Virus record (IMG/VR): IMGVR_UViG_3300032257_000005
Span: 1 to 64,000 of that record
Reading direction: 5' to 3' (one strand)
From: a virus
Taxonomy: Duplodnaviria > Heunggongvirae > Uroviricota > Caudoviricetes
Length of the DNA stretch: 64,000 bases
The notes below the pieces were generated by a model. It made no database searches. It was not told where the DNA came from and saw only the letters and a list, made by a program, of their open reading frames with translations. The translations under genes were made by a program, and so were the position numbers. Below, one piece after another: positions 39,881 to 60,073 of the stretch (its first letter is position 1; every line of letters begins with the position of its first letter).

Positions 39881-40927
39881 ATGATTGCACAACCACTTGA
39901 AGCACCTATACATCTACGGGGTTTAAGTTTAGCCGCTACCAAACAGAAAGGCGGCAATAAAATAAAGTTCGTAAATCCAAATACAGACAACTATGAACGA
40001 AATCTAAATTATGCAGCCGCTTTACATAAGGCAGGTGTTGCTACTATCAAACGAAATGAGCTAAAAGGTAAAAACGCAGTTATTATTGGATCAGGTTCAA
40101 CATTAAAAGATCCTGATGTTATGGTTGAATTACTTAGATTGAAAGATGAAGGTTATATTTTATTTGCCTGTAAGCAAGCCATTAAAGTTTTAGTTGATGC
40201 AGGTATAACACCTCAATACGCGGTAACAATGGACCCCGGCCAGCACATTGCTAGACCTGAAAAGATATACAAAGCTGAAGGCACTACACATATTGTAGCC
40301 AGTTCAAGCGATCCGTTATTATGGCAATACTTATTAGCTGGTATGCCTTTTGGTGATTGGATTAAATCATTAAGCGAAGAAGATCAGAAAAAAGTATTAG
40401 AGAAAGATTACGATAATTACAAATCTGGAACCTACGAATTAAATGATGCTGGTGTTGATAAAGCTGAAGTATTAATATTTCATTCTGCTACAGGCTATGA
40501 AAATGAAGTAAAAATGTATAATGAATTATTTGATTTACATGATTGTATGGGTGGTGGATATAACGTTGTGAACAGAGCGTTATCTGCTGCAATGTTTATG
40601 GGTGTTGATAATATCGTTATGGCTGGTACTGATTGTGGCTGGCGCGTAGATGGAAAATTTTATGCTGATGATACAAATAATCGTCCCGGTGTTGATATGA
40701 ACGATGGGATGATGGTTGAAGGGACTGATAAAAACGGACAAAAAATAAATAACCCAAACGCTAGAGAATGGTTCACAAGACCTGATATGCTTGCATCTGG
40801 CGTAGCATTAGCTAAACTTGCAATTAAGTTCAATGGAAAAATTAAATTCATTGGTGATACACTTCCTGCAAAACTTATTGAGAAGGATGATTCTTTTTTA
40901 AATAAGTGTGCAAGTTTTCATAGTTGA
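39881..40927 (+). CDS. hypothetical protein, possibly Maf/DUF115-like (MptE-like) glycosyltransferase fold
   Basis: ...NAVIIGSGSTLKDPDVMVELLRLKDEGYILFACKQAIKVLVDAGITPQYAVTMDP... resembles the iiGxGPSL...ac..a...L...gI.PDy..s.D signature of the motility-associated-factor family. This is memory-based, not verified. Confidence 0.25.
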   Translation: MIAQPLEAPIHLRGLSLAATKQKGGNKIKFVNPNTDNYERNLNYAAALHKAGVATIKRNELKGKNAVIIGSGSTLKDPDVMVELLRLKDEGYILFACKQAIKVLVDAGITPQYAVTMDPGQHIARPEKIYKAEGTTHIVASSSDPLLWQYLLAGMPFGDWIKSLSEEDQKKVLEKDYDNYKSGTYELNDAGVDKAEVLIFHSATGYENEVKMYNELFDLHDCMGGGYNVVNRALSAAMFMGVDNIVMAGTDCGWRVDGKFYADDTNNRPGVDMNDGMMVEGTDKNGQKINNPNAREWFTRPDMLASGVALAKLAIKFNGKIKFIGDTLPAKLIEKDDSFLNKCASFHS

Positions 40928-41873: not shown

Positions 41874-43013
41874 ATGGCTAATTCATTAGACAATATTATG
41901 GCTAAAATCCTTGCGCGTGGCTTGATGGTTCTACGTGAACAAGCAACCATGCCAAGAATCGTAAACGGTGACTACTCGCGTGAAGCTGCGCAAAAAGGCA
42001 CTACAATTGATATTCCAATATCTTCAGGTAAGACAGCTAGTGATGTAACACCATCACCAACTTATTCAAGTGCGCCTGATAGCTCTCCCGGTATTGTTCA
42101 AGTTCCTTTGAACAACTGGAAAAAGGTAGCATTTAGTCTTACTGATAAAGATCAGGTAGAGATTGATAAAAATGAACACTTTATGCCGCTAGAAATGGGT
42201 GAAGCAATTCGCGCACTTTCAAACGTTGTAAATGAAGATATTTTTGCAGAATACAAAGGCGTATATGGTTATGCTGGAACGGCTGGTACTACACCATTCG
42301 CTTCAACCGTAACTGCTGCAACCGATGCACGTAAAGTGCTTCATCAACAGCTTGCCCCTCGTATGGATCGCCGTGCAGTTCTTGATTATACTGCTGAAGC
42401 AAATGCACTGGCATTATCACCATTTTCTGATGCTGATAAAATCGGTACTAACGATATTCGTATTGAAGGTGAAGTTGGTAAAAAGTACGGTATTGATTGG
42501 TATGCTGATGATGCTGTACCTACGCATACACGAGGTACAGTAGCTTCTGTTGCTGTAGGTTCAACTACTGCTATAGGCGCATCTTCTTTAGGTGTAACGG
42601 GTGGAGGTGCTTTGGGTACAATGACTCACGGTGATGTTTTCACAATCGCTGGTGATACTCAAACATACGTGGTTAACGCCACTGTTACTATTGCATCTGC
42701 AACTACTAACATTTCAATTGATCCACCTTTGAAAGTTATTGCTTCTGCAACATCAGTTATTACTATAAAAGGTAGTCATACTGTTAACATGGCGTTCCAT
42801 CGTGATGCGTTTGCATTTGCGACACGTCCATTGATGCAGTCAACTACTGATACAGCTTTAGGCAGTAAGATTATGTCTATGACTGATCCACAAACAGGTA
42901 TTAGTTTGAGGCTGGAAGTGTCACGTCAATATAAACAGGTCACATGGGAACTAGACATTCTCTGGGGAGCTAAACTTGTACGCGCACCACTTGCTATGAG
43001 AATTGCAGGTTAA
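41874..43013 (+). CDS. major capsid protein (putative)
   Basis: 379 aa, follows the scaffold, Ala/Thr/Gly-rich. A strong terminator lies immediately downstream. Confidence 0.55.
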   Translation: MANSLDNIMAKILARGLMVLREQATMPRIVNGDYSREAAQKGTTIDIPISSGKTASDVTPSPTYSSAPDSSPGIVQVPLNNWKKVAFSLTDKDQVEIDKNEHFMPLEMGEAIRALSNVVNEDIFAEYKGVYGYAGTAGTTPFASTVTAATDARKVLHQQLAPRMDRRAVLDYTAEANALALSPFSDADKIGTNDIRIEGEVGKKYGIDWYADDAVPTHTRGTVASVAVGSTTAIGASSLGVTGGGALGTMTHGDVFTIAGDTQTYVVNATVTIASATTNISIDPPLKVIASATSVITIKGSHTVNMAFHRDAFAFATRPLMQSTTDTALGSKIMSMTDPQTGISLRLEVSRQYKQVTWELDILWGAKLVRAPLAMRIAG

Positions 43014-43036
43014 TAGATTAGTAACTAAAATAAAAC

Positions 43037-43070
43037 CTCGTTATGTATAAAAACATAGCGGGGTTTTTTT
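43037..43070 (+). terminator. rho-independent terminator after the capsid gene (CCTCGTTATGT..ACATAGCGGGG + TTTTTTT)
   Basis: Imperfect GC-containing hairpin plus T7 run. Confidence 0.5.
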
Positions 43071-43084: not shown

Positions 43085-43483
43085 ATGAGATTACCAAAAG
43101 TAAAAATTGTAAATGATGCTACAGGTAAAACAAAAAAAGTAAATCAAATTGAATATGCTAATGATCTTGGTTTAGGAAAATTTATAGGATGGAGTTTAGC
43201 AGGTGAAATTCGTGGTGAATTTAACGAATCAGATCAGGTTTTAGCAAACAATGATCAAGCGATACATTCACCTAAAACATTTGAAGAAGGTGGCTGGGAA
43301 GTAGCTGCTGAGGCTGAATCAATTGTTGTAACACCTAGCGAAGAAGTAACAACAAGTGATAAAATTGAACTTGTAGAAAATAGTGATAATCAAGAAGTTC
43401 AAAATGAAGTTGCAGAAAGTGACGCAAAACAAAAAGTACAACCTAAGCGTGGTAGAGGAAAACGTAAAAAAGAGGAAGAATAA
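43085..43483 (+). CDS. hypothetical protein (possible head decoration/accessory), start MRLPKVKIV
   Basis: ORF with a Lys/Glu-rich tail. Confidence 0.3.
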   Translation: MRLPKVKIVNDATGKTKKVNQIEYANDLGLGKFIGWSLAGEIRGEFNESDQVLANNDQAIHSPKTFEEGGWEVAAEAESIVVTPSEEVTTSDKIELVENSDNQEVQNEVAESDAKQKVQPKRGRGKRKKEEE

Positions 43484-44241
43484 TGATCATTACATCGTTC
43501 AGTCAAAAAGGTTATCATGAGTATGGTAAACGGTTCATCACCACCTTTTTAGAACATTGGAAAGATGAAAAACTAACTGTTTATTATGAAAACGGTATAC
43601 CTTCAAGCAGGCCACAAGATAAACGTATTCAATATATTAATCTATGTCAATATGACGATTTCAATTCGTTTGAAAAAACATTATTAGAATCAGATCCAAT
43701 GTATCAAGGTATGATTGCATCACCTCCTAATGGTGATAAAGCGTATAACTTTAGATATAACGCCGCTAAATTCTTCAAAAAAGTATTTTGTATTGCTCAT
43801 GCTACTCGTAAGACTAAAGAAAAAGTTACGTGGGTTGATGCTGATGTTGAGTTTGTAAAAGAACTTCCTGAAGGTTTTATAGATAGCATATTACCTGATG
43901 ATATGTATTTAGCACATTTAGCACGTGAATGGCTTTATACTGAAGCTGGGTTTATGATTTTCAATTGTAATCATGCATCACATGAATACTTTATGCCGTT
44001 ATATTTAAACATGTATTTCACAGGTGCGTTTAAATACTTAGGTGAGTTTCATGATTGTTATGTATTGGATTGTTTAACTAAATTATTACAAGTTCCATGC
44101 GTTAATATTAATCCTAATGAAAAATCAAATCATCCATTCCAAGAATCTGTTATAGGTGAGTATATGCATCACTATAAAGGGCCAGAACGTAAAAAAGCTG
44201 GTGCTTTACTTGATACCGATCCTAAGAGGAAAACAGCATGA
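43483..44241 (+). CDS. hypothetical protein, possible nucleotide-sugar transferase (DxD-like VDADVEF)
   Basis: ORF; weak DxD context. First gene of the sugar island. Confidence 0.25.
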   Translation: MIITSFSQKGYHEYGKRFITTFLEHWKDEKLTVYYENGIPSSRPQDKRIQYINLCQYDDFNSFEKTLLESDPMYQGMIASPPNGDKAYNFRYNAAKFFKKVFCIAHATRKTKEKVTWVDADVEFVKELPEGFIDSILPDDMYLAHLAREWLYTEAGFMIFNCNHASHEYFMPLYLNMYFTGAFKYLGEFHDCYVLDCLTKLLQVPCVNINPNEKSNHPFQESVIGEYMHHYKGPERKKAGALLDTDPKRKTA

Positions 44242-44669
44242 AACGTAGATCATTCTTAACAAGTTTAGGTTTAATTGGAGCAGCTTCTTTTACAAAAGCA
44301 TCTGAACACTTGCCAGAAAAAATGATTGAAGCTACTAACGATGAGATATCTAATAGATTTTCAGTAGTTACAAAACCAGTTGAAAATATAACTAATGTGG
44401 ATTTTGGATTAATTATTAATGGTGTTAGCTATCGCACTATTGATTATTCAATATCTTATGAATCAGGTTTTATAATAAACAGAGAATTAAATGCGTCAAT
44501 ATATCTAGATAAGCTATCACTTGATTCCGGTGAAGAAGTAACCGTTGAATTAATACATAAAGAAGTTAATATTCATGAAAAGTTTAACGCCGTTATTACT
44601 CGTACAACAACAAGCATAGGATATGATAGCCCTTTAATTATGGATATAATTTTGAAGGAAGTATCATGA
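44238..44669 (+). CDS. exported protein with a twin-arginine (Tat) signal peptide
   Basis: MKRRSFLTSLGLIGAASFTKASE... has the S/T-R-R-x-F-L pattern plus a hydrophobic core and an A-x-A-like cleavage region. Confidence 0.45.
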   Translation: MKRRSFLTSLGLIGAASFTKASEHLPEKMIEATNDEISNRFSVVTKPVENITNVDFGLIINGVSYRTIDYSISYESGFIINRELNASIYLDKLSLDSGEEVTVELIHKEVNIHEKFNAVITRTTTSIGYDSPLIMDIILKEVS

Positions 44670-46681
44670 AGAAAGCACTTATAACTGGCATCACCGGCCA
44701 AGATGCAGCTTATCTTTCTGAATTACTTTTATCTAAAGGCTATGAAGTTCATGGAGCATCACCACGTAGAGCGTCCGGTAATTATTGGCGGCTACAATCA
44801 ATAGGGATACTTGATGATGAAGATAATCCTAGAGATAAGAATTTTAAATTAAAGTCACTAGATGTTACCTGTAGTTCATCAGTCACCAATATTATTAAGG
44901 ATGGACAATACGATGAAATTTATAATCTCGCTGCTCAAAGTTTTGTTGCCGAATCGTTTAATTCGCCTACAGCGACTTTCAACATCAATGCGATTGGAGT
45001 CCTCAATCTCCTTGAAGCGATTAAAATAAACTCACCAGAAAGTAAATTTTACCAAGCATCAACATCTGAAATGTTTGGATTAGTTAATATGGAGGCACAA
45101 AATGAAGAAACACCATTCCATCCACGTTCCCCTTACGGGGTGGCAAAAGTTGCAGCGCATTATGCGGTATGTAATTACCGCGAAGCATACGGATTATTTG
45201 CGAGCTGCGGAATCTTGTTCAACCACGAAAGTCCCTTGCGAGGAATCGAATTTGTCACAAGAAAAATTACTGATGGAGTGGCAAAAATCATTGCAGGTAA
45301 GCAAGAGAAATTATCGTTAGGTAATTTAGATGCATATCGTGATTGGGGTCATGCAAAAGATTATTGTATAAATAAAGATGTTCCAATGCTTACACCTAAT
45401 GGCTGGAAGTATTTTAATGAATTAAATATTGGTGATGAAGTTATTAACTTTAATCCTGAAACAAATTCACTATCAAGAGATATTATATTACAGGTTGTTG
45501 AACCTAAAATAGATTCATCTAAGAAAATACGTTTAACTGGTAGGTCAATAGATTTAACTTGTACACAAAACCATAGAATTTATTATCAACAAAAATCTAT
45601 AAATTCAAAAGGTGGTTGGAGTGATTGGAAAGTTACAACTGCTAGTGAATTTAATTATAAATTGAATATACTTGAAAATAGATCAAAATATGATTATAGA
45701 TTGCCACATTTTCAAGATTATAATGGTATTGAAAATAACAAAGTAACTGATAATCAAATATATCTTGTTGGTGCTTTATTAGCAGAAGGTCATTTAAGAA
45801 CAATACATAAACAGGGTAGAGGGCATAATGTAACAGTTTCTCAATCTGAAATTGCTAATCCTAGAATACATAATAAAATAAAATCAATACTAGATAATTT
45901 TAATTTTAAATATAGCGAAAGATTAAATAATTCAGGTGTTACTGAATGGGTTATTAATGCAGAAAATACTGAAGATATACTTAAATGGTTTGATAGTAAT
46001 GACTTACATAAAATGCCTACTTGGTGTTTTTCATTATCACAACGACAATCGAAAATATTATTTGATTCAATGATGGATTGTGATGGTTGTTGGGGTTCTA
46101 TGCAATACATTTCAAAACGATATAAATTATTAACAGATTTTCAAACAATAGCAGCAATTAGTGGTTATCAAACAACGAATCCAAAACAAGATAAATTTGG
46201 GTGCTGGAGAATAGCAAGTATTGTACAAAGAAGAAAATACTCATATATAACTAAAGCAGAAGAAATTGATGATGGAATTACAGATGTTTGGTGTATAACT
46301 ACAAATAATGGAACAATTATATCAAGAGATAAAGGATTGATATCAATATCTGGAAATTGTTACGGCATGTATTTAATGATGCAACAAGAAACACCTGATG
46401 ATTACGTATTAGCTACAGGTGTAAAACATTCTGTAAGAGATGTATTACGAATATGTTTTGAACGCTTTGATATGTTTTATCCTGACTATGTTGAAATGGA
46501 TCAACGGTATATGCGGCCTAGTGATGTTCCATTATTATTAGGTGATGCAACTAAAGCACATGAAAAACTTAATTGGCATCCATCATATGATTTTGAATTA
46601 TTAATAACTGAAATGCTTGATTATGATTTAGCGTGTCAAGGTGTCGATGCTATTAAATTGTTAGCGGATAGCTATAAATAA
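44666..46681 (+). CDS. gmd: GDP-mannose 4,6-dehydratase interrupted by a full-size LAGLIDADG intein
   Basis: Exteins [30 protein letters not shown]...[10 protein letters not shown]...FNHESPLRG...RDWGHAKDY | [21 protein letters not shown]...[16 protein letters not shown] are near-collinear with bacterial Gmd. Confidence 0.8.
   Translation: [671 protein letters not shown]
45365..46357 (+). mobile_element. intein with a LAGLIDADG homing-endonuclease domain (331 aa) inside gmd; +1 Cys at 46358
   Basis: Starts [13 protein letters not shown] (block A) and ends ...ISGN. The two dodecapeptide motifs are ...[12 protein letters not shown]... and ...[13 protein letters not shown].... The insertion site lies inside the conserved [9 protein letters not shown]/C-xxMWLMLQ segment. 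Confidence 0.7.
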
Positions 46682-46703
46682 TTACTAAATAGAGGAATAT
46701 TAA

Positions 46704-47348
46704 ATGTTACCACAAACAGGTGAAAGACAAGTTGCAGAACATATCGAAGGTATTAAACCAAACCATCGACAGCGTTATCAATTTGGTATAGATAAAATTA
46801 AAGAACATTTTTGTGCGCTAGAAAGGCCTATTACAATATTGGATGCTGCATGTGGTGTTGGTTACGGTACTATGATGATAGCTGAATCATTAGCTGATGG
46901 ATCTGATTTAAAAGGTAGTGTATTAGGTGTTGATATATTTGAAGGTGCTGTAGAGGCTGCAAAACGTGCATATAAATTAGATAACAATGATTTCATGCAA
47001 TTAGATTTAGGTAATTCTGATTTATGGAATGAAAAAATAGATAATGTCGATGCTATTGTCAGTATTGAAACTATTGAACATGTTAAAGATGCTGAAGATT
47101 TAATAAAGCGATATGCAGAAAAAACTAATTTTCTTATAGGTTCGGTTCCAAATGAAGATGTAGTCCCTTTTAATGCAATTACACATCCATTTCATTTTAG
47201 ACATTATACAAATAGTGAATTTGAAACATTGCTTAACGATTATGGTTTTAAAATAAAAGCGATAGGAACTCAATACGATAAAATTCCCGGCTTTGTTTAT
47301 CCGGGAGATGATGGTTATGGGAACGTTGTTTGTGCTATTAAAGAATAA
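46704..47348 (+). CDS. class I SAM-dependent methyltransferase
   Basis: Motif I ...ILDAACGVGYGT.... Confidence 0.5.
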   Translation: MLPQTGERQVAEHIEGIKPNHRQRYQFGIDKIKEHFCALERPITILDAACGVGYGTMMIAESLADGSDLKGSVLGVDIFEGAVEAAKRAYKLDNNDFMQLDLGNSDLWNEKIDNVDAIVSIETIEHVKDAEDLIKRYAEKTNFLIGSVPNEDVVPFNAITHPFHFRHYTNSEFETLLNDYGFKIKAIGTQYDKIPGFVYPGDDGYGNVVCAIKE

Positions 47349-47349
47349 T

Positions 47350-47814
47350 ATGAAAACTTTATTAGAAAGATTTAATGAAAAATGGATACCTGTAACAGAA
47401 AGTGGTTGCTGGATATGGACTGCCTTTGTAAATGAAAAAGGATATGGAAAATTTACCAATAATGGTAAAACTTATAGATCACATAGACTTTCATATGAAT
47501 TGTATATTGGTGAAATACCTGATGGTTTATATGTTTGTCATGAATGTGATAATACTTTTTGCGTTAATCCAAATCATCTTTTTTTAGGAAGTCAATTAGA
47601 TAATATACATGATATGTTAAACAAAGGTAGAGGATCAGCACCTCCTTTATTTAAAGGTGAAGATCATTCATTGTCAAAATTAACAGAAAATAATGTGATT
47701 GAGATTCGTAAATCTAAACATATGACACATAGACAATTAGCGGAAAAATATAATGTTAGTAAAAAACTTATATTTAATGTAATACATAAAAAAGCTTGGA
47801 GTCATGTACCGTGA
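47350..47814 (+). CDS. HNH homing endonuclease (paralogue of 51965..52437)
   Basis: ...GCWIWTAFVNEKGYGKFTNNGKTYRSHRLSYELYIGEIPDGLYVCHECDNTFCVNPNHLFLGSQLDN... is the HNH_3 pattern. It is wedged between the methyltransferase and the next gene with overlapping stop/start. Confidence 0.7.
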   Translation: MKTLLERFNEKWIPVTESGCWIWTAFVNEKGYGKFTNNGKTYRSHRLSYELYIGEIPDGLYVCHECDNTFCVNPNHLFLGSQLDNIHDMLNKGRGSAPPLFKGEDHSLSKLTENNVIEIRKSKHMTHRQLAEKYNVSKKLIFNVIHKKAWSHVP

Positions 47815-48671
47815 AAGTAGGTGTTTTCATAACTGAAAATAATCATGAGCATGATAAAATGCTTACTGCTTTTGCAAAAGGATTATGTGCAACAGGAATT
47901 GAACCGATTATATCTAATGTCAATAATTATGTTGATGTTGATATAGCGGTTATTTTTGGCGTATATAAAAAATCAGTACCCATTAGTTTTGCGCGTGGTG
48001 AGATTATGCGTAAACAAACTGAGGCTAATAGATTAACAATTGTTATTGAGAAAGGTTTTATTGATCGTGATGAATATTATATGGTTGGTATGAACGGATT
48101 AAATAATCGAGCTTATTTTAATAATGATGATTGTGATGATTTAAGATGGAATCAGTTAGATAAAAAAATTAAACAAATGAACTTAAACGGTAAGAATATT
48201 GTCATTTGTGGACAAGTACCATCTGATGCAAGCGTACAGGCTGTTGATATTGTGGATTGGTATGGATTATTGATAAAACAAATACGTGATATATCACAAA
48301 GACCGATAGTATTTAGACCGCATCCGTTAGCATTAAACACAACACCTGAATTTATTGGCACGACACGATCACACAAGACGCTACAGGAGGATTTCGATGA
48401 TGCCTATTGCGTTGTAACCTATAATTCAAATACAGCCGTAGACGCTGTAATAGCCGGTGTGCCGGTTGTTGCATTTGATTGCGGTTCTATGGTTTGGGAT
48501 ATATGCGGTAAATCTGTTAATTCAATTGAATTTCCATTAATACCTTTTGCAAAAGATATTGATCAGTGGGCTAATAATATTGCCTATGCACAATGGAATA
48601 TAGATGAATTCAGACAGGGGTTGCCATTTACTCATTTAATGCAAGTTCTAAAGCAGGAGATAGTTTTATGA
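47796..48671 (+). CDS. hypothetical protein (possible glycosyl/phosphotransferase); start uncertain (GTG 47811 or a later ATG)
   Basis: ORF only. Confidence 0.3.
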   Translation: MESCTVKVGVFITENNHEHDKMLTAFAKGLCATGIEPIISNVNNYVDVDIAVIFGVYKKSVPISFARGEIMRKQTEANRLTIVIEKGFIDRDEYYMVGMNGLNNRAYFNNDDCDDLRWNQLDKKIKQMNLNGKNIVICGQVPSDASVQAVDIVDWYGLLIKQIRDISQRPIVFRPHPLALNTTPEFIGTTRSHKTLQEDFDDAYCVVTYNSNTAVDAVIAGVPVVAFDCGSMVWDICGKSVNSIEFPLIPFAKDIDQWANNIAYAQWNIDEFRQGLPFTHLMQVLKQEIVL

Positions 48672-48964
48672 ATATTCTTGTTAGTATTGGATCTATTGCG
48701 GCTGTTGTTGGTTCTATTTCTGGTGGTATTTATTTTTATGAAAATCGTTTTGAAACAAAAATACACCATGAAGTTACATTAGCTGAAAATGAAAAAAGAG
48801 TTTCAGATCATTTATTAGATTTGCGTATTGATTTGTATGAATCAAGATTAGATAGATTAATTGATAAAAAATCACGCCAGACGATATCACCAAGAGAACA
48901 GCGTATAATTAAACGATTAAATAAAAGCTTAGATATTTTATATAAACGTAAAGAGGAAAAGTAA
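48668..48964 (+). CDS. membrane-anchored small protein
   Basis: N-terminal TM helix. Confidence 0.3.
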   Translation: MNILVSIGSIAAVVGSISGGIYFYENRFETKIHHEVTLAENEKRVSDHLLDLRIDLYESRLDRLIDKKSRQTISPREQRIIKRLNKSLDILYKRKEEK

Positions 48965-49194
48965 TGAATAGAGTTGCACATAATTTATCAGTATCAAGTG
49001 ATTTCATTCAAGATCAATTACATTGGATGCATACATTGTCAGTTGTAATATCTGATGTTAATGATGAAGATAAAACAATTGATCATTCTGAACAAATGAA
49101 CATGACGGTTGAACCTGCTATGAAGCCTGAAGATATTATTAGTGGTTTACGTGCGTTAGCAGATAAGATTGAGGAATACACAGGTGAGGCTTGA
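48964..49194 (+). CDS. hypothetical protein
   Basis: ORF only. Confidence 0.3.
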   Translation: MNRVAHNLSVSSDFIQDQLHWMHTLSVVISDVNDEDKTIDHSEQMNMTVEPAMKPEDIISGLRALADKIEEYTGEA

Positions 49195-50176
49195 TAATGG
49201 GATACTAGATCATGGTTTTAAATTTCCTGATTTAGCTGAATTTCCTGATTACGAAAATGAAGATAGATTTGATGAAGATGTTGATTTATCACCCCTGTAT
49301 AAACATTTTGTTGAAGCAAATGGAAAAGCATTTTTAAAAGAACTATCAAAATACACTAACGTTAATGAGCCTTGGATAAATAAGTTAATGTCTTATTTTT
49401 ACATATACTCTGGTTATGATAGGCATAGCAGTATAATTGATGGTGATTGTTTTTATAATTTATATAACAAAGGAATACACATAACCAGTTTACCTTTTGG
49501 TGATTTAGATGTAAGTAAAACAGTTGATAAATTATTGAATGATCCAGATTGGAAACCTGAACCGGGTACTTATGATCGTGGTGTTTATCTGGATGCAAAA
49601 AATATAGCATTTGTTAATGATAAGTTTAAAAAGGCTGGAATATTGAAAGCGGTAAGTGCTTATTCAGGTGGTTTAAAAGAAGTTAAAAATGTATTTCTTC
49701 ACGTATCAACACCAACAGATTATCATTATAAGCAGTTTATGTCCGATGCTACCACTACACCTAAATGGACTAATTTACATATAGATCCTAAAGAAGATGC
49801 TATGAAGGCTATTGTTTATTTAGAGGATAATGTAGGTGAAGAAAATGGTGCTTTTGGATACGTACCTAAATCGAATAGATTTCTGTATAAAGATTTAGAT
49901 AGTGTTTTTGCAAGAGCTATATCGACAGGTAATTATTGTCGCACTCCTGAAATGCGTAAAAGCGTTTTTAGTTTACCTAAACGATTCAGAATATCTAATA
50001 ACTTTGGTCGATGTATTTTAGATGGAAGTGAAATGTCAAAATATTTTGATGAACGATTTTTACGTGTAACATCTAATATGGGTAACGTATCTATTTTTGA
50101 TGCTGGTGCTGGTATGCATATGGGGGGCAAATGCAAAACAGGACGGCGTATTGCACTTCAGGTACTTATGAAATGA
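49169..50176 (+). CDS. hypothetical protein (335 aa) in the sugar island
   Basis: ORF only. Confidence 0.35.
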   Translation: MRNTQVRLDNGILDHGFKFPDLAEFPDYENEDRFDEDVDLSPLYKHFVEANGKAFLKELSKYTNVNEPWINKLMSYFYIYSGYDRHSSIIDGDCFYNLYNKGIHITSLPFGDLDVSKTVDKLLNDPDWKPEPGTYDRGVYLDAKNIAFVNDKFKKAGILKAVSAYSGGLKEVKNVFLHVSTPTDYHYKQFMSDATTTPKWTNLHIDPKEDAMKAIVYLEDNVGEENGAFGYVPKSNRFLYKDLDSVFARAISTGNYCRTPEMRKSVFSLPKRFRISNNFGRCILDGSEMSKYFDERFLRVTSNMGNVSIFDAGAGMHMGGKCKTGRRIALQVLMK

Positions 50177-50673
50177 TTACACAAAAAGTATTAAAAGAAT
50201 TATTTTTGCATGATGAAGAAAAAGGTGTTCTTTATTGGAAAAATCCTACGTCATTTAGGGTTAAGAAAGGTGAATTTGCTGGAACTGTATATCATGATGG
50301 GAATGTAAATATTCAAATTAAAGGAAAAGTATATAAAAGGCATCGTTTAATTTGGATGTTTAAACATGGCTACTTTCCTAAACAACTTGATCACATAGAT
50401 CGTGATCGAAGTAATGATAGATTAAATAATTTAAGAGAAAGTAACCAATCTGAGAATAATGCAAATAAAGCTAAAACAAATAAAAAAACATCTTCAATTT
50501 ATATTGGTGTTAGTTGGAGTGAATCTCGTAAACGATGGGAATCTAAAGTTATGAAGAACAGAAAAACTTATCATTTAGGTAGATTTAAATGTGAAATTGA
50601 AGCGGCAAAAGCTAGAGATAAGAAAGCAGTAGAATTATTTGGTGAATTTGCAGAGAGGAATTTTAATGAGTGA
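50173..50673 (+). CDS. HNH homing endonuclease with a C-terminal AP2 DNA-binding domain
   Basis: ...KRHRLIWMFKHGYFPKQLDHIDRDRSNDRLNNLRESNQSEN... (HNH), then ...SIYIGVSWSESRKRWESKVMKNRKTYHLGRFKCEIEAAKARDKKAVELFGEFA... (AP2). Confidence 0.7.
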   Translation: MITQKVLKELFLHDEEKGVLYWKNPTSFRVKKGEFAGTVYHDGNVNIQIKGKVYKRHRLIWMFKHGYFPKQLDHIDRDRSNDRLNNLRESNQSENNANKAKTNKKTSSIYIGVSWSESRKRWESKVMKNRKTYHLGRFKCEIEAAKARDKKAVELFGEFAERNFNE

Positions 50674-51376
50674 GTTAAATTTAAATGAAGATGTATTAAA
50701 ACGTAGGGTTTGGAATCAGAGTATTTATGATTCACATATAAAGGATTTCATGTTAGGTCAAACTCCACCATATATCAATAAAGATAGAAATGTTATAGAT
50801 GTTGGTGCTGCTGTCGGATTATATTCTAATTTTTGGGCTGATAAATGTAAAAATATTTATTCGTTTGAAGCGGTAACGCCAGTGTATGAACAACTAAAAC
50901 TAGTTGAAGCCAAGCATGGAAATATGGCTGCATTTAATGTTGCTGTATCTAATTTTGTTGGTAAGGCTGATTTTTGGGTTGATGATAAGCGATTATCTAA
51001 TTCATCATTTAGAGATTTAGTAGGCGGTCAGAAAATTACTGTACCTGTTACAACGATTGATCATGAAGATCTTGGTAAAGTTGGTTTTATTAAGATTGAT
51101 GTTGAAGGTCATGAATTAGATGTTTTGAAAGGTGCTGAAAAGACTATTGAAAAATATCATCCTACTATCATGTGTGAAATTTATCCTAAATTTAATAACG
51201 GTGATGTATCACATACATTTGATTTTTTATTTGATCGTGGTTATAACTGTTACTACAATATTAAAGGTCAAGGTTTAAGTCGGGTTATGGATACAGCGCG
51301 TGGTGTATTGGCTGCTACCAATGAAGGTTTGATTAAACAACACGATGGGGATTTTCTTTTTACTTATGGCAACTAA
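50666..51376 (+). CDS. FkbM-family methyltransferase
   Basis: ...VIDVGAAVGLYSNFWA...FEAV... plus overall FkbM-like length. Confidence 0.5.
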   Translation: MSELNLNEDVLKRRVWNQSIYDSHIKDFMLGQTPPYINKDRNVIDVGAAVGLYSNFWADKCKNIYSFEAVTPVYEQLKLVEAKHGNMAAFNVAVSNFVGKADFWVDDKRLSNSSFRDLVGGQKITVPVTTIDHEDLGKVGFIKIDVEGHELDVLKGAEKTIEKYHPTIMCEIYPKFNNGDVSHTFDFLFDRGYNCYYNIKGQGLSRVMDTARGVLAATNEGLIKQHDGDFLFTYGN

Positions 51377-51974
51377 ATTACAAAATAGTATGTTTATCCA
51401 TATACCAAAAACAGGCGGAAGATGGGTAAACAATATGCTTTTCAAAGCAGTTAAAGGTGCTGAATCTATTGGTGATCCTATTTATGATGCCCATGATTCA
51501 CCTGATATTGATTTACCTGTATTTGCTTTTGTGCGACATCCTATTGAGCTTGCTAATAGCTTATGGTGTCATAGATCAAGAAAGCATAGTAATACACGAC
51601 ATAAAGATTGGAACTGGCAACAAGATATAGAGTTTGAACGTGTATGTGGTGATTCAGATTATAATAAGTATTTTGAAAATGTTGCTGCTAATCCAAAAAT
51701 AATTACTAGTTATTATTATCATTTTATAGGTAAATATAAAAAAGTAAGATTAGGTCGAATGGAAACAATAGCTGAAGATCTTGTTAAGATACTTATTAAT
51801 TATGAAGAATCATTTAATGAAGATTTTATACGTGCTAATGCAATGAATAAGATTGGAAGCGGATCTGATCAGATTAATTTACCTAAAGACATATACAACC
51901 AAATAATGAAAAATGAAGAAGATTTTTGTTTGCAGTTTGGTTATACAGAACAGGAAGAAGTTAATGCATCGTAA
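51366..51974 (+). CDS. sulfotransferase (PAPS-dependent) family protein
   Basis: ...MFIHIPKTGGRWVNN... matches the 5'-PSB loop (h-I-P-K-T-G-T/S). Confidence 0.45.
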   Translation: MATKLQNSMFIHIPKTGGRWVNNMLFKAVKGAESIGDPIYDAHDSPDIDLPVFAFVRHPIELANSLWCHRSRKHSNTRHKDWNWQQDIEFERVCGDSDYNKYFENVAANPKIITSYYYHFIGKYKKVRLGRMETIAEDLVKILINYEESFNEDFIRANAMNKIGSGSDQINLPKDIYNQIMKNEEDFCLQFGYTEQEEVNAS

Positions 51975-52437
51975 ATATAAAAATAAATTAGAATCATTTA
52001 ATGATAAATACGAAGTTGTTGAAGAATTAGGTTGTTGGGTATGGACTGCATCAATATTAAAAGTAGGATATGGTTGCATGAGATGGGATGGTAAGACACA
52101 ATTATCACATAGAGTTTCTTATGATCTGCATAAAGGAAAAATACCAGATGGTATGCATGTTTTACATAAATGTGATAATAGATTTTGTGTAAATCCTAAT
52201 CATCTTTTTATTGGGACAAACTTAGATAATATAAAGGATAGATTATCTAAGAATAGACCAAAAACAGGATGTGTAGGTGAGAAATCTGGTAGAGCAATAT
52301 TATCAGAAGTTGATGTTAATAATATAAGAGCGATAAAAAAATATTGCAAATGCACACAGCAACAGTTAGCAGATATATATAATGTTTCAAAATCATGTAT
52401 AAATCATGCAATTCACTACAATTGGAAACATATATGA
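51965..52437 (+). CDS. HNH homing endonuclease (paralogue of 47350..47814)
   Basis: ...GCWVWTASILKVGYGCMRWDGKTQLSHRVSYDLHKGKIPDGMHVLHKCDNRFCVNPNHLFIGTNLDN.... Confidence 0.7.
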
Positions 52438-53174
52438 ACTACTTAGATAATGATATGCCAAAATGCTTCATTGGTTATGATAGAGCTGAATCTGCGGCTT
52501 TTTATACTTTATGTCATTCAATATGGAGGCGAGCATCAAGACCTGTTCATATTATACCTATTATGCTATCTGAACTTAAAGGTTTGATGTGGCGTGATCG
52601 TGATCCAATGCAAAGCAATGATTTTTCATTCAGTCGATTTTTAGTGCCGTATCTTTGTAATTATGAAGGTAAGGCGTTATTCATAGATGCGGATATGATG
52701 GTTGTTGATGATATTAATAACTTGTTTGATTTGTTTGATGATAGCTATTCAGTTCAATGTGTAAAGCATAATCATGTACCTATAGAAGAAGTAAAATATT
52801 TAGGTAATGTACAAACAAAATATAACAAGAAAAATTGGTCAAGTGTGCTATTATTCAATAATAGTAAGTGTTCTGCTCTCACCCCTGAATACATCAATAC
52901 TGCAAGTGGCTTAGATTTACATCAATTTAAGTGGCTTGATTCTGACAGTGAAATTGGTGATTTGCCTTTGCGTTGGAATTTTTTAGTATCGTACTATCAT
53001 GATTTACCTATAGAGGAAATTAGCTTACTTCACTGGACTGAGGGAGGGGCTTATTTTAATGACTACAAGAATTGTCCATATGCAGATATTTGGCAAGATG
53101 AATATAAAGATATGATTCATGTAACACAACCAGCAAGTGTTCATTATAGTGAAGTATCAGAAAAAATAGTATAG
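52434..53174 (+). CDS. glycosyltransferase family 8-like protein
   Basis: ...FSRFLVPYLCNYEGKALFIDADMMVVDDINNLFD... is a GT8-type DxD region. Confidence 0.45.
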   Translation: MNYLDNDMPKCFIGYDRAESAAFYTLCHSIWRRASRPVHIIPIMLSELKGLMWRDRDPMQSNDFSFSRFLVPYLCNYEGKALFIDADMMVVDDINNLFDLFDDSYSVQCVKHNHVPIEEVKYLGNVQTKYNKKNWSSVLLFNNSKCSALTPEYINTASGLDLHQFKWLDSDSEIGDLPLRWNFLVSYYHDLPIEEISLLHWTEGGAYFNDYKNCPYADIWQDEYKDMIHVTQPASVHYSEVSEKIV

Positions 53175-53181: not shown

Positions 53182-53697
53182 ATGACTACAGTTAACGCAA
53201 CAGTTTCACATGCAAGTGCTAATAGTTACATTACGTTAATTGAAGCTAATGCATATTGGGCTGATCATTTTTATAGTGAAACATGGGATGCATTACAAAG
53301 CGGTGATAAAAATACATTGATCGTTATGTCTACACGTTTGCTTGATGAATGGGTTGATTGGAAAGGTATTAAATCAAGTGATACGCAAGCACTACGTTGG
53401 CCTCGTTATAATACTGTAGATCGTGATAACTATTGGATTGATGGTGATGTTATACCTGTTGAGGTTAAAAATGCTACGGCTGAACTTGCAGGTTATTTAG
53501 CAAAAGGTGATGCAACTGCTGAACCTGATACTAAAGGCTTTAGTGAATTAAAGGTTGGTGAATTGCAATTAAAAATTGATAAATCAGATCGTGATAATAC
53601 CACAGTAATTCCTGATTCTGTTTTGGCTATCATTTCACATTATGGTGTTGTCAGATCAAGAAAGAATCCAAGCACTGTTAGTTTAATTAGAACTTAA
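53182..53697 (+). CDS. hypothetical structural protein
   Basis: ORF just upstream of the fibre gene. Confidence 0.3.
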   Translation: MTTVNATVSHASANSYITLIEANAYWADHFYSETWDALQSGDKNTLIVMSTRLLDEWVDWKGIKSSDTQALRWPRYNTVDRDNYWIDGDVIPVEVKNATAELAGYLAKGDATAEPDTKGFSELKVGELQLKIDKSDRDNTTVIPDSVLAIISHYGVVRSRKNPSTVSLIRT

Positions 53698-53701: not shown

Positions 53702-56509
53702 ATGCCTCGTTATTTTAACGGATTAAACGAATACTTAACTGCTGCTGCATTATCTGCACATCAGATAACAGGTGATGTTTCTATTGCTGTTACATTTAAT
53801 CCAGATACTTTACCGGCAAGTAATGCCGCAGAATGGGCTGTATTTCAATCTATAGGTGGAGAAACAACAGCTACTAATGCTCTTTATGGTGTTGGAATAA
53901 GAAATAATAGTGGAACATCATATTTTTCATTTTTTCATGAAAGTGGATCAGGAGTGAATCATAGGGTTGATTCAAATATTACCGTTAGTGCGGATACTGA
54001 ATATAAAATTATTGTTATACGTAATACATCAGCATTAACATATCAACTTATTGTTAACGGAACTGATCATGGTACTTTTTCATACACAACAAATCCTTCA
54101 GGAGGAAGTAGTACAAGATTAAGAATAGGTTCTGCATACAGTGGAGGTACTTCTGCTGCTCAATGGTTTAATGGTACTATAAGTGAGGTAGGTATATGGG
54201 ATGCAGGAATAAGTACCGCTGAAGCTATTTCATATACGGATGGATCGTATGAAGTTAAAAATATTGATACTTCTAATCTTGTTAGTCATTATAGAATAAC
54301 AGGTGGTATATCACCGGAACCTGATACCTTTGGATCAGTTGGAAGTTTAGTTATAAGTGGTACGCCAAATTCACCAGTTATAACAACACAAACTAGTATA
54401 ACGCCAAACTTAACTAATAATTCAAAACAAGGTTATGCTAGAAGTGGTGTTTTTAATATTATAAGTGATAATGAATCTTTATATATAAGAGATTCTCAAT
54501 GGTCTGTTATCGCTTCTGATACAGCCGTACTATCTGCTTTAACCAGTGTAACTAATCATCTTGGTGATATAGACGTTTATAACGGAATGATCTATACGGT
54601 AGCTAATAGATTTTCTACTTGTGCTGATAAAACAAATCATCAAATAGCAATTTATAACGCTTCAACTTTAGCATTAACTTCATCAAGAAGTATATCCGCA
54701 TCAGATCATACCGCCGCAGCCGCGATAGCGATAAACCATAGAGCTAATGAAATATATCTAGGATCTTTTTGTGATGGTGCGAATATAGAGATCCATGATT
54801 TAGATACATTAGCCTATTCAAGTTCATTAACACTTAGTTATAACGTTTCAAGCATTCAAGGTATCGCATATAAGAATGGTTATATTTATGCAATGGGTAC
54901 GGATGGAGATCTTTTTCAAATAAGACGAAGTGATGGAGATATAATTTGGCATGAGAATATGGGCGGTGGTTATCCTGAATATGAAGGTATTGATTTTTCA
55001 GGTGATGAATTTAGATACTTAGTTCATGCTTCATCAATTGTATATAACATACTGTTTATAACAGGTGTTCCAGTTGGTAATATTGATTTTAATGTAACTG
55101 GATCAAAGCATTTACATAAAGCAGATAGTACAAATGTATCGGTAATAACAGATTCAACTATTAACTTAGATGTACTTGATTCAAAACACATTCATAAATC
55201 AGATATATTTAACATAGTACAAACATATAATTTAAATATATTAGATTCTAAGCACTCACATAAAGCAGATAAAACTAATTTAAGTTTAACTGTTGATTTA
55301 GATACAAAAGACTCAAAACATACTCACAAGTCTGATAAAGTTAATTTAAATCAAACTCATGATTTAAATACACTAGATAGTAAGCATATTAATAAATCTG
55401 ATAATTTAATAATTGATCAAATACATAATTTAAACGCATTAGATAGCAAACACTTACACAAATCTGATAAGACTAATTTAGATCAAACTAATAACTTAAT
55501 TATATTTGATTCTAAACACATTCATAAATCTGATAAATCTAATTTAGATCAAACGCATTATTTAAATATTATTGATAGTAAACATCTGCATAAATCAGAT
55601 GAAACTTTATTCAATTTAACAATAACGCTTAATACATTAGATTCAAAACATATTCATAAATCTGAAAATAATGCTGTTGATCAAACTCATAATATCAATG
55701 TATTAGATAGTAAGCATTTACATAAATCAGATATTGCTGGATTAGAAGTTACAGAAGGTCTTGATGTACGAGATTCAAAACATCTTCATAAATCTGATAA
55801 AACTAACTTAGATCAAATACATGATTTAGGTGTTTTAGATAATACGCATAATCATACATCAGAACAAACTTCATTTAATTTAACTGTTGAATTAAATACT
55901 AAAGATTCTAAGCATATTCATAAATCTGATAATACTGCTATTGATCAGATACATAATTTAAATGCTTTAGATAGTAAACATACACATACTTCTGATAATG
56001 CTGCACTTGAATCAACAGTAGGATTACAAGTAAATGATTCTAAGCATCTACATAAATCGGATAAAACTAATTTAGATCAAGTTCATAATTTATCAGTTAA
56101 AAGTACAAAACATATTCATAAATCTGAAAATGTTGTAATACAATCTACATTAGAACTTGATGTACATGATAATAAGCATTTACATAAATCTGAAAATGCA
56201 GGTTTAATACAAACATTAACGTTATCAATTAAGAGTGCAAAACATATTCATAAGTCAGATAATGCTCAGGTAAATCAAACTAATATATTAAGAGCATTAG
56301 ACGGAAAACATTTGCATAAGTCTGATAAAGCTAATATTGTACAGAAGCATATATTAAAACCGAAAGATGCTAAACATTTACACAAGTCTGATTTCATTGA
56401 TTGGACACCAGCCGTTCCGTATGTTTCTTCACCAGAACGTACTATACTAGGAAAATATGAGGATAGAACTATATACTCTAAATATGTATCTAGGGTAATA
56501 CAATCATAA
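53702..56509 (+). CDS. tail fibre/spike-like protein (935 aa) with an N-terminal lectin/LamG-like jelly-roll region and ~19 tandem 22-aa His/Lys-rich repeats
   Basis: N-terminus ...VSIAVTFNP...EWAVFQSIGG...LRIGSAYSGG...WFNGTISEVGIWD... is LamG-like. The repeat unit is LDSKH(L/I)HKSDKTNLDQ(T/I)HNLN(A/I). Confidence 0.5.
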   Translation: MPRYFNGLNEYLTAAALSAHQITGDVSIAVTFNPDTLPASNAAEWAVFQSIGGETTATNALYGVGIRNNSGTSYFSFFHESGSGVNHRVDSNITVSADTEYKIIVIRNTSALTYQLIVNGTDHGTFSYTTNPSGGSSTRLRIGSAYSGGTSAAQWFNGTISEVGIWDAGISTAEAISYTDGSYEVKNIDTSNLVSHYRITGGISPEPDTFGSVGSLVISGTPNSPVITTQTSITPNLTNNSKQGYARSGVFNIISDNESLYIRDSQWSVIASDTAVLSALTSVTNHLGDIDVYNGMIYTVANRFSTCADKTNHQIAIYNASTLALTSSRSISASDHTAAAAIAINHRANEIYLGSFCDGANIEIHDLDTLAYSSSLTLSYNVSSIQGIAYKNGYIYAMGTDGDLFQIRRSDGDIIWHENMGGGYPEYEGIDFSGDEFRYLVHASSIVYNILFITGVPVGNIDFNVTGSKHLHKADSTNVSVITDSTINLDVLDSKHIHKSDIFNIVQTYNLNILDSKHSHKADKTNLSLTVDLDTKDSKHTHKSDKVNLNQTHDLNTLDSKHINKSDNLIIDQIHNLNALDSKHLHKSDKTNLDQTNNLIIFDSKHIHKSDKSNLDQTHYLNIIDSKHLHKSDETLFNLTITLNTLDSKHIHKSENNAVDQTHNINVLDSKHLHKSDIAGLEVTEGLDVRDSKHLHKSDKTNLDQIHDLGVLDNTHNHTSEQTSFNLTVELNTKDSKHIHKSDNTAIDQIHNLNALDSKHTHTSDNAALESTVGLQVNDSKHLHKSDKTNLDQVHNLSVKSTKHIHKSENVVIQSTLELDVHDNKHLHKSENAGLIQTLTLSIKSAKHIHKSDNAQVNQTNILRALDGKHLHKSDKANIVQKHILKPKDAKHLHKSDFIDWTPAVPYVSSPERTILGKYEDRTIYSKYVSRVIQS
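55090..56400 (+). repeat. 66-bp tandem coding repeat array (~19-20 units, DSKHxHKSDK...)
   Basis: Directly visible periodicity. Confidence 0.85.
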
Positions 56510-58606: not shown

Positions 58607-58722
58607 GTCCTGCCACAAGGGTCTTGCATGAAACCTTAATACGAATATTAAAAGGTGGAGTAAAAGCATATGAGGTTTGGTATAAAGCTACACTTGAAGA
58701 AAATAAATTAAAAAAGAAATAA

Positions 58723-59555: not shown

Positions 59556-59556
59556 T

Positions 59557-59880: not shown

Positions 59881-60073
59881 TAAAAGTACATAATGAAATT
59901 CTTACAGTTAACGCTTCCCCTTTCTCTTTTTCATTATAATTATTCATTACTTTAGTTTTACCTTCAACTATAGTTCCACTTGCCCATTCATCATCTAATG
60001 ATTCAACCATCATAGTAAAATTACCTTTACGATTATGACTAACGTTATAAATTTTACCTGTTTCAATTTTCAT
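59867..60073 (-). CDS. hypothetical protein
   Basis: ORF only. Confidence 0.3.
   Translation of the reverse strand: MKIETGKIYNVSHNRKGNFTMMVESLDDEWASGTIVEGKTKVMNNYNEKEKGEALTVRISLCTFNEVK

Follow-up and report, generated by a model that had tools for sequence, protein, structure and literature searches.

A conserved glycan-building and tailoring cassette between the capsid and adaptor genes of a siphovirus lineage, with head proteins as candidate targets

Introduction

Glycosyltransferases and an O-methyltransferase of mycobacteriophages (Che8, Corndog/cluster O and Myrna; Freeman et al., 2023, cited after PMC11600133 and PMC12619734) modify the capsid and the tail tube, and the chlorovirus PBCV-1 glycosylates its capsid in the cytoplasm with its own GDP-mannose 4,6-dehydratase (GMD; A118R), the A064R protein, which contains a glycosyltransferase domain of the A fold (GT-A), and S-adenosylmethionine (SAM) methyltransferases (A064R and A061L; PMC9614988). 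Here we describe an island of sugar-enzyme genes at positions 43483-53174 of a 64,000-nt stretch of phage DNA (IMG/VR record IMGVR_UViG_3300032257_000005, positions 1 to 64,000; this whole stretch is hereafter the window), which lies on the 86.3-kb metagenomic ENA contig ERZ27251083 k141_623775 and belongs to a siphovirus. The island genes, together with a Maf-like glycosyltransferase gene 3 kb away, very probably form one co-inherited system that builds and tailors a glycan; we propose, tentatively, that a head protein is the target of a late, cytoplasmic glycosylation.

To our knowledge, virion glycosylation in tailed phages has been shown so far only in mycobacteriophages, where it blunts antibody recognition. 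A bacterial parallel is the fucose decoration of Nod factors in Rhizobium sp. NGR234, in which NoeL is a Gmd, NoeI an FkbM-type 2-O-methyltransferase and NoeE a sulfotransferase. Like the window, that locus combines Gmd, FkbM and a 3'-phosphoadenosine-5'-phosphosulfate (PAPS) sulfotransferase, there yielding a methylated, sulfated 6-deoxyhexose; unlike the window, it makes a bacterial signal molecule and has a GDP-fucose synthase and a fucosyltransferase dedicated to that task. Maf enzymes and the beta-Kdo (3-deoxy-D-manno-octulosonic acid) transferases, to which two of the genes described below are related, use cytidine monophosphate (CMP)-activated acidic sugars and are cytoplasmic.

The window resembles the mycobacteriophage systems in that a tailed phage carries tandem glycosyltransferases and an O-methyltransferase for what would be cytoplasmic modification of its own subunits. 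It differs in its enzyme families (Maf-like, KpsC-like, GT8-like GT-A, Gmd, sulfotransferase and PhyH), in a capsid protein that has no C-terminal serine/threonine-rich acceptor tail, in a host that is probably Gram-negative and not an actinobacterium, and in being known from its genes alone. With PBCV-1 it shares a virus-encoded GDP-mannose 4,6-dehydratase for a 6-deoxyhexose, small class-I SAM methyltransferases and, within the families, fusions of glycosyltransferase and methyltransferase domains; the cytoplasmic, host-independent glycosylation of PBCV-1 is also what we propose for the cassette. Unlike the window phage, PBCV-1 is a giant virus of eukaryotes whose glycans are N-linked and which also encodes GMER; it has no Maf-like, KpsC-like, sulfotransferase or dioxygenase enzyme. 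Finally, the window shares with Maf islands the MptE/Maf domain, and with KpsC, KpsS and WbbB the QxxxD and HP motifs of retaining beta-Kdo transferases (GT107, GT99). Unlike those systems, it shows no flagellin, nonulosonate/Kdo synthesis or capsule export genes among the open reading frames (ORFs) checked, which here and below are the called genes of the contig from 16.7 to 73 kb (precomputed Pfam matches) and 20 larger window ORFs elsewhere; its proteins are also shorter and single-module, and they are encoded in a phage head operon.

Results

A cassette conserved between capsid and adaptor genes

The island occupies about 9.7 kb between a small post-capsid gene (43085-43483) and a head-tail adaptor gene (53182-53697), and its genes, all on the + strand, mostly overlap or abut. 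About 25 distinct contigs present the same order, namely portal, MuF, Maf-like, scaffold, capsid, (small protein), cassette and adaptor. Across these contigs the cassette proteins are 35-63% identical with catalytic motifs intact, and the capsid homologues are 50-73% identical to the window capsid protein.

Four variants of the cassette were distinguished, all accompanied by the Maf-like gene. Variant i, in the window and in loci L005/L009 and L007/L008, consists of GT-A, Gmd, class-I methyltransferase, KpsC-like, PhyH, FkbM, sulfotransferase and GT8 genes. Most loci have variant ii (GT-A, Gmd, methyltransferase, KpsC-like and GT8), to which L012/L013 add a radical-SAM enzyme and another methyltransferase. 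Variant iii (L068-L070, L075-L077) holds KpsC-like, sulfotransferase (detected there only by hidden Markov model, HMM), PhyH, FkbM and methyltransferase genes and has neither Gmd nor GT-A, and variant iv (L067) is reduced to the KpsC-like gene and the methyltransferase. At the core of the lineage are the Maf-like, KpsC-like and class-I methyltransferase genes; the modules are Gmd with GT-A, and the sulfotransferase with PhyH and FkbM, the last always co-occurring with the other two in the lineage. As separate observations on L012/L013 (GCA_041607575.1 contig, 1044-3941), MuF is fused there to an ADP-ribosyltransferase toxin domain (PF03496), and a radical-SAM/SPASM enzyme stands at the cassette end in place of the PhyH/FkbM/sulfotransferase trio.

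The Maf-like gene was present in every cassette-bearing relative in which that region was captured. In cassette-less Vibrio phage MAR10 no gene separates MuF from the scaffold gene (the junction is on record), and no MptE match was found in cassette-less MW202657. In other phages, Rosetta-stone fusions join GT-A, methyltransferase and MptE-like domains. It is because of this conserved order with intact motifs, the strict modular co-occurrence, the fusions between families and the linkage to a gene 3 kb away that we regard the cassette as one glycan system with high confidence. An initial sequence-only reading of the window had likewise proposed a coordinated system; the synteny and the co-occurrence with the Maf-like gene bear this out, but half of the machinery (the KpsC-like and GT-A enzymes and the dioxygenase) had been overlooked.

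Conversely, the genes might be independent morons that accumulated at a permissive site and have no common product. Three homing endonucleases and an intein do mark the island as a mobile-DNA hotspot, and its content varies among relatives. However, neither order and content kept at the above identities with intact catalytic motifs, nor the domain fusions between cassette families, nor a strict modular presence and absence that extends to the distant Maf-like gene would be expected of unrelated passengers, and we consider this explanation very improbable.

Glycosyltransferases

Single-sequence searches of PDB, Pfam, PHROG and NCBIfam were uninformative for the sulfotransferase and for the 252-aa, 286-aa and 330-aa proteins, for which profiles, structure prediction and fold searches were needed. 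The Maf-like gene (39881-40927, + strand), located between the MuF and scaffold genes, encodes an MptE/Maf-like candidate protein O-glycosyltransferase (PF01973, 63.5 bits vs 34.6). A profile of its 15 phage homologues matched the Magnetospirillum Maf flagellin glycosyltransferase best (5MU5, E=4.6e-6) and archaeal MptE second (8SD5, E=6e-5). An earlier Maf/DUF115-like assignment is correct as far as the domain goes. No flagellin or nonulosonate genes that would give it a flagellar context were seen among the ORFs checked.

The first gene of the island (43483-44241, + strand) encodes a 252-aa protein of the GT-A fold with a metal-binding DxD motif (D119-A-D121), as in retaining GT-A glycosyltransferases. 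Its family comprises 1275 representatives, phage and cellular, across all public genomes and metagenomes.

The 286-aa protein (47811-48671, + strand) is a KpsC/KpsS/WbbB-like glycosyltransferase of the retaining beta-Kdo-transferase type, as judged from a profile of 32 homologues. Against PDB this profile matched KpsC (6MGD, E=0.0012) and WbbB (5FA0, E=0.015) with the QxxxD and HP motifs aligned, and the corresponding residues (Q135, D139, H171 and P172) are invariant in the 32 homologues. PF05159 matched 17 of these homologues (best E=2e-5) and DUF6716 matched 15, while the window protein itself had no PF05159 match; the predicted assignment is good at the level of the family and marginal for the window protein alone. 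Relatives occur on 299 IMG/VR contigs.

At the other end of the island, a GT8/GT24-like GT-A glycosyltransferase (52434-53174, + strand) carries its DxD within FIDADMMV and matches phrog_28018 (E=2e-45). It is 49% identical to a glycosyltransferase of Pelagibacter phage Mosig, 45% to the 'galT-like' protein of MW202512 and 30-33% to Caulobacter jumbo-phage proteins, and its GenBank relatives bear mixed labels (GT8, GT24, galT-like). By Pfam the GT8 call is marginal (PF01501, 27.3 bits vs a cut-off of 24.3, covering only profile positions 79-156 of 253); it is backed by the DxD motif, the PHROG match and the phage homologues annotated as glycosyltransferases. Counted across the head operon and past the capsid terminator, glycosyltransferase-type genes number four.

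Gmd and the tailoring enzymes

The Gmd gene (44666-46681, + strand; 671 aa) is split by an intein, described further below, which the sequence-only reading had missed. PF16363 matches it in two stretches (E=1e-111), and TIGR01472 scores 389.6 bits vs a cut-off of 415, a shortfall due solely to the intein split. Orthologues in three intein-free relatives are contiguous (324-344 aa); T133, E135, Y157 and K161 are invariant in the phage orthologues, and the N-terminal GITGQDAAY agrees with the GxxGxxG pattern. On these sequence features we take its identity as certain. As had been noted for Fcl/GMER and perosamine synthetase, partner genes were not seen among the ORFs checked, whether Fcl/GMER, Rmd, Per, PAPS-synthesis or CMP-sugar genes. 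The PBCV-1 GMD reduces its own product to GDP-D-rhamnose (PMC9614988). By analogy, the missing reductase need not block the pathway, as the phage Gmd might likewise reduce its own product or a host enzyme might do so.

Next to Gmd, a class-I SAM methyltransferase (46704-47348, + strand) matches Methyltransf_12/23/25/11, with scores above the curated thresholds. A class-I methyltransferase gene lies near or adjoins the KpsC-like gene in nearly all loci of the lineage, in many unrelated phages and in Planctomycetota genomes. The FkbM-family methyltransferase (50666-51376, + strand) exceeds the cut-offs of both PF05050 (E=5e-20, 72.7 bits vs 22.7) and TIGR01444 (90.5 vs 37.7 bits).

The PAPS-type sulfotransferase (51366-51974, + strand) was settled by a fold search, which returned the sulfotransferase fold. 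The 5'-phosphosulfate loop (PKxG..) and the 3'-phosphate motif (R.P....S) are both present, and across 16 homologues P14, K15, G17, G18, R57, P59 and S65 are invariant and H58 nearly so. Curated profiles contributed little: no Pfam or NCBIfam profile matched the window protein, Sulfotransfer_1 and Sulfotransfer_2 matched the 16 homologues weakly (E ~2e-3) 3 and 2 times, and the profile run against PDB placed a spurious SWI/SNF match on top, with heparan sulfate 6-O-sulfotransferase at E=0.3 only.

The 330-aa protein (49184-50176, + strand) is a PhyH-family Fe(II)/2-oxoglutarate dioxygenase. The protein itself has no Pfam match; PF05721 is on record in four homologues, and the facial triad (H194-x-D196, H307) and the 2-oxoglutarate-binding R317 are invariant in 19 sequences. 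One member of its cluster is named 'ectoine hydroxylase-related dioxygenase', and its profile weakly matched the sugar-modifying oxygenase HygX (4XC9, E=0.026). Co-inheritance of an oxygenase with an O-methyltransferase and an O-sulfotransferase suggests that a hydroxyl is newly introduced before being capped; another sugar or the protein itself could be the substrate.

The sequence-only reading had expected a methylated and/or sulfated 6-deoxyhexose. The NGR234 pathway is a precedent for such a product, but the expectation is weakened by variant iii, in which the sulfotransferase, FkbM and PhyH are kept without Gmd and GT-A. Since these enzymes also occur in phages lacking Gmd, sulfation is not tied to the 6-deoxyhexose, and the NGR234 analogy may not describe the real substrate.

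Overall, the enzyme-family calls of that reading came through the profile and fold tests: Gmd by its Pfam and TIGR01472 matches and catalytic residues, the two methyltransferases by their family profiles, and the sulfotransferase by fold and invariant motifs. The outcome that the reading had named as refuting, namely wrong calls, thus did not occur. Of its larger unknowns, the one with a DxD-like motif is the GT-A enzyme and the other two are the KpsC-like and PhyH proteins; the three HNH endonuclease genes had been missed as well.

Position of the island in the head operon

On the left flank, the major capsid gene (41874-43013, + strand), whose product is a candidate acceptor, 46% identical to the major capsid protein of MAR10 and 66-73% to those of cassette-bearing relatives, is followed by a strong intrinsic terminator (43032-43070, + strand) made of a 15-bp hairpin (43032-43067; -19.1 kcal/mol) and a U-run. 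The terminator was absent from the consensus-scan list; direct folding confirmed the hairpin (z=-6.9; 0 of 200 shuffles fold equally well), in agreement with the original description of the island as lying behind the capsid gene and its terminator. The small head-module gene (43085-43483, + strand) probably starts at the ATG at 43085, past the terminator. About 40 N-terminal residues of its product are conserved and the acidic tail is variable; homologues come next after the capsid gene in cassette-bearing relatives, and the small post-capsid genes of cassette-less MAR10 and MW202657 align with it by position and with a weak sequence match. On the right flank, the adaptor (+ strand; PF20557, E=2e-26) corresponds by position, without a sequence match, to the MAR10 gene 'head-tail adaptor Ad1' (second after the capsid gene), and its MW202657 counterpart shows a 36% match to it. 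The island had been placed directly before a gene for a 935-aa fibre; in fact the adaptor gene comes first.

In MAR10 and MW202657 a single small gene separates the capsid gene from the next head gene, and because nothing else occupies the slot, the island is an insertion relative to these phages. Overlapping and abutting + strand genes past the capsid terminator fit expression by read-through, at a level below that of the capsid protein. Compared by megablast with 50,697 phage records, the island had no match.

This position also bears on DNA hypermodification, that is, sugars placed on phage DNA bases. Phage glycosyltransferases commonly modify DNA (PMC12619734). Against this, the genes belong to the late head operon and not to the replication module, the window showed no pathway for hydroxymethyl-pyrimidines or other modified bases, and we hold this outcome to be extremely improbable. 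Moreover, we know of no DNA-glycosylation system that includes Gmd, Maf-like, KpsC-like, sulfotransferase or PhyH enzymes.

Relatives in other phages and in cellular genomes

We then scanned the neighbours of KpsC-like genes in 17 phage loci without a detectable match to the head genes of this lineage, covering the 150 ORFs that lie 4.5 kb or less from the gene. Head and neck genes were the most frequent, with tail-completion gp17 seen 7 times, the SU10 adaptor 5 times and head-completion genes 5 times, and SU10 and HK97 capsid and portal genes were also among them; sugar-enzyme neighbours were DegT aminotransferase (6 times), methyltransferases and radical SAM enzymes. An MptE-like HMM run over 57 phage loci without the lineage's head-module genes gave no match within 10 kb of the KpsC-like gene, and because of this negative the Maf link is specific to the present lineage, fusion proteins excepted.

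In two podoviruses, too, related genes lie among head genes. In MW202512 the capsid gene is followed by genes for a TPR protein, an HNH endonuclease, an FkbM methyltransferase and a GT8-like protein, and in MW202713 a TibC-like glycosyltransferase, a methyltransferase, a KpsC-like protein and a pyridoxal phosphate enzyme are encoded just upstream of terminase and portal. Clusters were also found in Caulobacter phage CcrSC (gp511-516; L120, 111906-128697), with annotated sialyltransferase, KpsC-like, GT8-like and methyltransferase genes, and in Pelagibacter phage Mosig (Mosig_00183-00191; L119, 121964-134614), with an FkbM-like and a second methyltransferase, a GT-A homologue, a GT8-like protein, two KpsC-like proteins and a protein labelled 'putative sulfotransfer', a homologue of the window's sulfotransferase (hhalign probability 95%). 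Both share KpsC-like, GT8-like and methyltransferase genes with the window; unlike it, they lie outside a capsid-adaptor slot, and no Gmd, PhyH or Maf-like gene was seen in them. The genes of both clusters have automatic annotation only, and the Mosig genome announcement is silent on them.

In bacterial genomes, KpsC-like genes occur in two settings, proteobacterial prophage head modules and cellular glycan loci of Planctomycetota. Pairs of a KpsC-like and a class-I methyltransferase gene in Planctomycetota/Acidobacteriota genomes (L016, L019-L025) adjoin GT4, GT8 and polysialyltransferase-like genes, and such cellular pairs may be the source of the phage module.

Enzyme solubility and the host envelope

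No transmembrane segment was found in any island enzyme, and all of them look soluble by sequence. The single membrane-type helix of the island is in a 98-aa protein (48668-48964, + strand; phrog_1009, function unknown), which has one N-terminal transmembrane-like helix and the island's highest hydropathy (Kyte-Doolittle 1.98 in a 19-residue window at residues 3-21), with weak homologues in L039-L041. It is followed by a gene for a 76-aa protein (48964-49194, + strand) that has no family match, a 31% identical homologue in L007 and L008, and similar-sized ORFs at the same position in L005. A polyprenyl-phosphate transferase, flippase, polymerase or ligase was found neither in the island nor in the other ORFs checked (contig to 73 kb).

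These results can be read in terms of the host envelope, the soluble enzymes acting at the cytoplasmic face of the membrane on host lipid-linked O-antigen, capsule linker or lipopolysaccharide core and adding, for example, beta-Kdo-type, methyl or sulfate chain caps, with late exclusion of other phages or less sticking of progeny to debris as the benefit. The closest solved relatives of the 286-aa protein, KpsC and WbbB, point this way, as do the Planctomycetota pairs next to other glycan genes, the location of the Mosig and CcrSC clusters outside head modules, and the conserved small membrane-anchored protein (predicted helix) within the cassette itself. However, the checked ORFs include no initiating transferase, flippase, ABC transporter, polymerase or ligase, the position of the Maf-like gene between MuF and scaffold and the strict capsid-adaptor slot would be left unexplained, and a surface change this late in the lytic cycle would have little time to act. 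We judge envelope remodelling, the main rival of a head target, to be unlikely, though far from negligible.

Lineage-specific proteins behind and within the cassette

The 935-aa protein (53702-56509) has an N-terminal Laminin_G_3 (ConA-like lectin) domain and, in its C-terminal part, about 20 copies of a 22-aa repeat, LDSKHxHKSDxxNLxQxHNLNx, with a 66-nt period in the DNA. Its gene is inserted after the head-tail adaptor gene and before the next neck gene. The sole homologue in related loci is in L053, and the protein is missing from nearly all cassette-bearing relatives; because of this absence it cannot be the general glycan target, a role that had been suggested for the repeat-rich fibre and that we reject.

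Another protein may nonetheless be the acceptor: tail tube, neck, fibres, or a host flagellin, pilin or phage receptor. Maf enzymes glycosylate flagellins (the 5MU5 match), the 935-aa protein directly follows the adaptor here, and mycobacteriophages modify the tail tube besides the capsid (PMC11600133). Set against these points are the rarity of the 935-aa protein among the relatives, the location of the cassette in the head half of the structural operon, and the want of any visible link to a host protein; we consider a target of this kind improbable.

Wedged between the GT-A and Gmd genes is an ORF for a 143-aa protein (44238-44669, + strand) with a signal like that for twin-arginine translocation (Tat), MKRRSFLTSLGL. 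This twin-arginine-type signal (MKRRSFLTSLGLIGAASF) had already been pointed out and is indeed visible. The ORF has no Pfam, PHROG or NCBIfam match and is window-specific; because no homologue was found in any related locus, it is not part of the conserved cassette. Like the 935-aa protein, it is lineage-specific and outside the pathway.

Intein, homing endonucleases and neighbouring observations

The sequence that splits Gmd is a predicted class-1 intein of 331 aa (45365-46357, + strand; Gmd residues 234-564) with a LAGLIDADG homing endonuclease. Its insertion is exact in comparison with the three intein-free orthologues, right behind ...HAKDY. It begins with Cys1 (C234), contains a TQNH block (TxxH) and the endonuclease motifs LVGALLAEGHL and LFDSMMDCDGC, and ends in ...SGN564 before the +1 nucleophile C565; the penultimate residue is Gly, not His. 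The features expected of a class-1 intein are all present. It is about 25% identical to phage NrdA and mycobacteriophage inteins, and no paper on a Gmd intein was found in the searchable literature. As an observation apart, the MuF head-morphogenesis gene (37724-39241, 505 aa) has Hint_2, PT-HINT and Intein_splicing matches and would be a second intein in the head operon.

Three free-standing HNH_3 homing endonuclease genes, all on the + strand and each lying between cassette genes, are further selfish inserts. The first (47317-47814; PF13392) is missing at this position in relatives, the second (50173-50673; PF13392, E=9e-14; with AP2, PF00847, E=1e-5) is absent in relatives, and the third (51964-52437; PF13392, E=3e-11, with zf-His_Me_endon) is absent in L007 and replaced in L005 by an unrelated 124-aa ORF. 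Between the first and the third the identity is about 47%, and the first is 49% identical to the HNH protein in the analogous TPR/FkbM/GT8 cassette of the unrelated podovirus MW202512 (L118, 7824-8300), which hints that HNH genes move between or with cassettes. The intein and the three HNH genes lie outside the pathway.

Elsewhere in the window, a block of small minus-strand ORFs of about 7.5 kb (window 58700-64000, contig to about 66 kb; L117), including a SpoU methylase, interrupts the structural operon between the tail terminator gene (58211-58606) and the tail-tube gene. ARAGORN reported a 99-nt tRNA-like gene with a four-base 'tagt' anticodon (33769-33867) adjoining a tRNA-Glu(UUC) gene (33889-33963). 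The phage also encodes an RF-1-domain protein (28058-28453) and an RtcB RNA ligase (8183-9397), and these genes together could form a translation or tRNA-repair theme.

Discussion

That the products of the cassette act on a head protein is a possibility to which we give slightly less than an even chance, and it is the one around which we arrange the evidence. We favour a head protein because MuF and scaffold genes enclose the Maf-like gene, because the capsid-adaptor slot is kept throughout the lineage and KpsC-like genes lie among head and neck genes of phages with other capsid types, because the enzymes look soluble and the ORFs checked offer no function for a lipid carrier, flippase or export, and because the capsids of mycobacteriophages and PBCV-1 provide two precedents for such a modification. 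The sequence-only reading had also pointed to virion proteins from the position in the structural operon; the fixed slot and the head and neck neighbours in unrelated lineages strengthen this, but the acceptor is still inferred, and the capsid protein carries no acceptor signature.

Several points weigh against a head target. The acceptor is placed by gene context and not by direct evidence, and the donor sugars by family membership alone, with a similarity to KpsC that is marginal for the window protein. Comparison of cassette-bearing with cassette-less capsid proteins showed no distinctive serine/threonine-rich extension or insert, and in the small post-capsid protein only the variable acidic tail stood out. 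Those KpsC and WbbB enzymes that have been characterised modify glycans linked to lipid (capsule linkers and O-antigen termini), and KpsC-like genes also occur in cellular glycan loci of Planctomycetota. Neither cultured cluster is in a head module, that of CcrSC lying between tail genes and the endolysin gene and that of Mosig adjoining ribonucleotide reductase and RuvC genes. In addition, late accessory genes may simply be tolerated as insertions between the capsid and connector genes.

With a head protein as the target, a pathway can be sketched from the enzyme families, each step of which is conditional. The cassette would be read through from the capsid terminator late in infection, and the enzymes, since all appear soluble, would be expected to act in the cytoplasm, where heads assemble. 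The Maf-like protein would attach a first acidic sugar to a head protein, most likely the capsid protein, from a CMP-activated host pool such as CMP-Kdo or a nonulosonic acid. The KpsC/WbbB-like enzyme may then add a Kdo-type residue, which the adjoining class-I methyltransferase would methylate. Gmd would turn host GDP-mannose into GDP-4-keto-6-deoxymannose, which either Gmd, as in PBCV-1, or a host enzyme would reduce; transfer of the resulting 6-deoxyhexose would fall to the GT-A enzyme and addition of a hexose to the GT8-like enzyme. In a separate branch, PhyH, the FkbM O-methyltransferase and the PAPS sulfotransferase would create and cap hydroxyls. The expected product would be an acidic, methylated and sulfated head coat.

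What is known is phage-encoded glycosylation, probably of the virion; what is new is the enzyme set (Maf-like, KpsC-like, PhyH and sulfotransferase), its modular architecture and its breadth among aquatic phages. No paper on this cassette, or on phage sulfotransferases in glyco-clusters, was found in the searchable literature. It is conceivable, if still doubtful, that the cassette represents a widespread, undescribed virion-glycosylation system of Gram-negative phages, with a core of Maf-like, KpsC-type and methyltransferase enzymes and swappable modules, producing acidic, methylated and (here) sulfated capsid glycans. If so, sulfated glycans would for the first time be known from a phage particle, and aquatic phages would have a hidden surface chemistry on their capsids.

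With its modular variants the lineage offers a natural series from which roles can be assigned to the enzymes, and because CcrSC and Mosig are cultured, they are usable as experimental models in which head glycosylation is testable now. The cassette may spread among phages by way of the intein and homing endonucleases that it contains. Should the host envelope prove to be the target, phages would have in this cassette a compact surface-remodelling system that acts late, and this too would be new. If instead heads are decorated, glycans on capsids would be a common feature of aquatic phages, given the 299 contigs with KpsC-like genes and the 1275 representatives of the GT-A family, and the enzymes would derive from families that bacteria use for the glycans of flagellin and capsule. 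Kdo-type sugars, methyl ethers, sulfate esters and hydroxylation could alter surface charge and adsorption to marine polymers or mucus, and such head chemistry could also alter grazing and decay rates and recognition by host defences.

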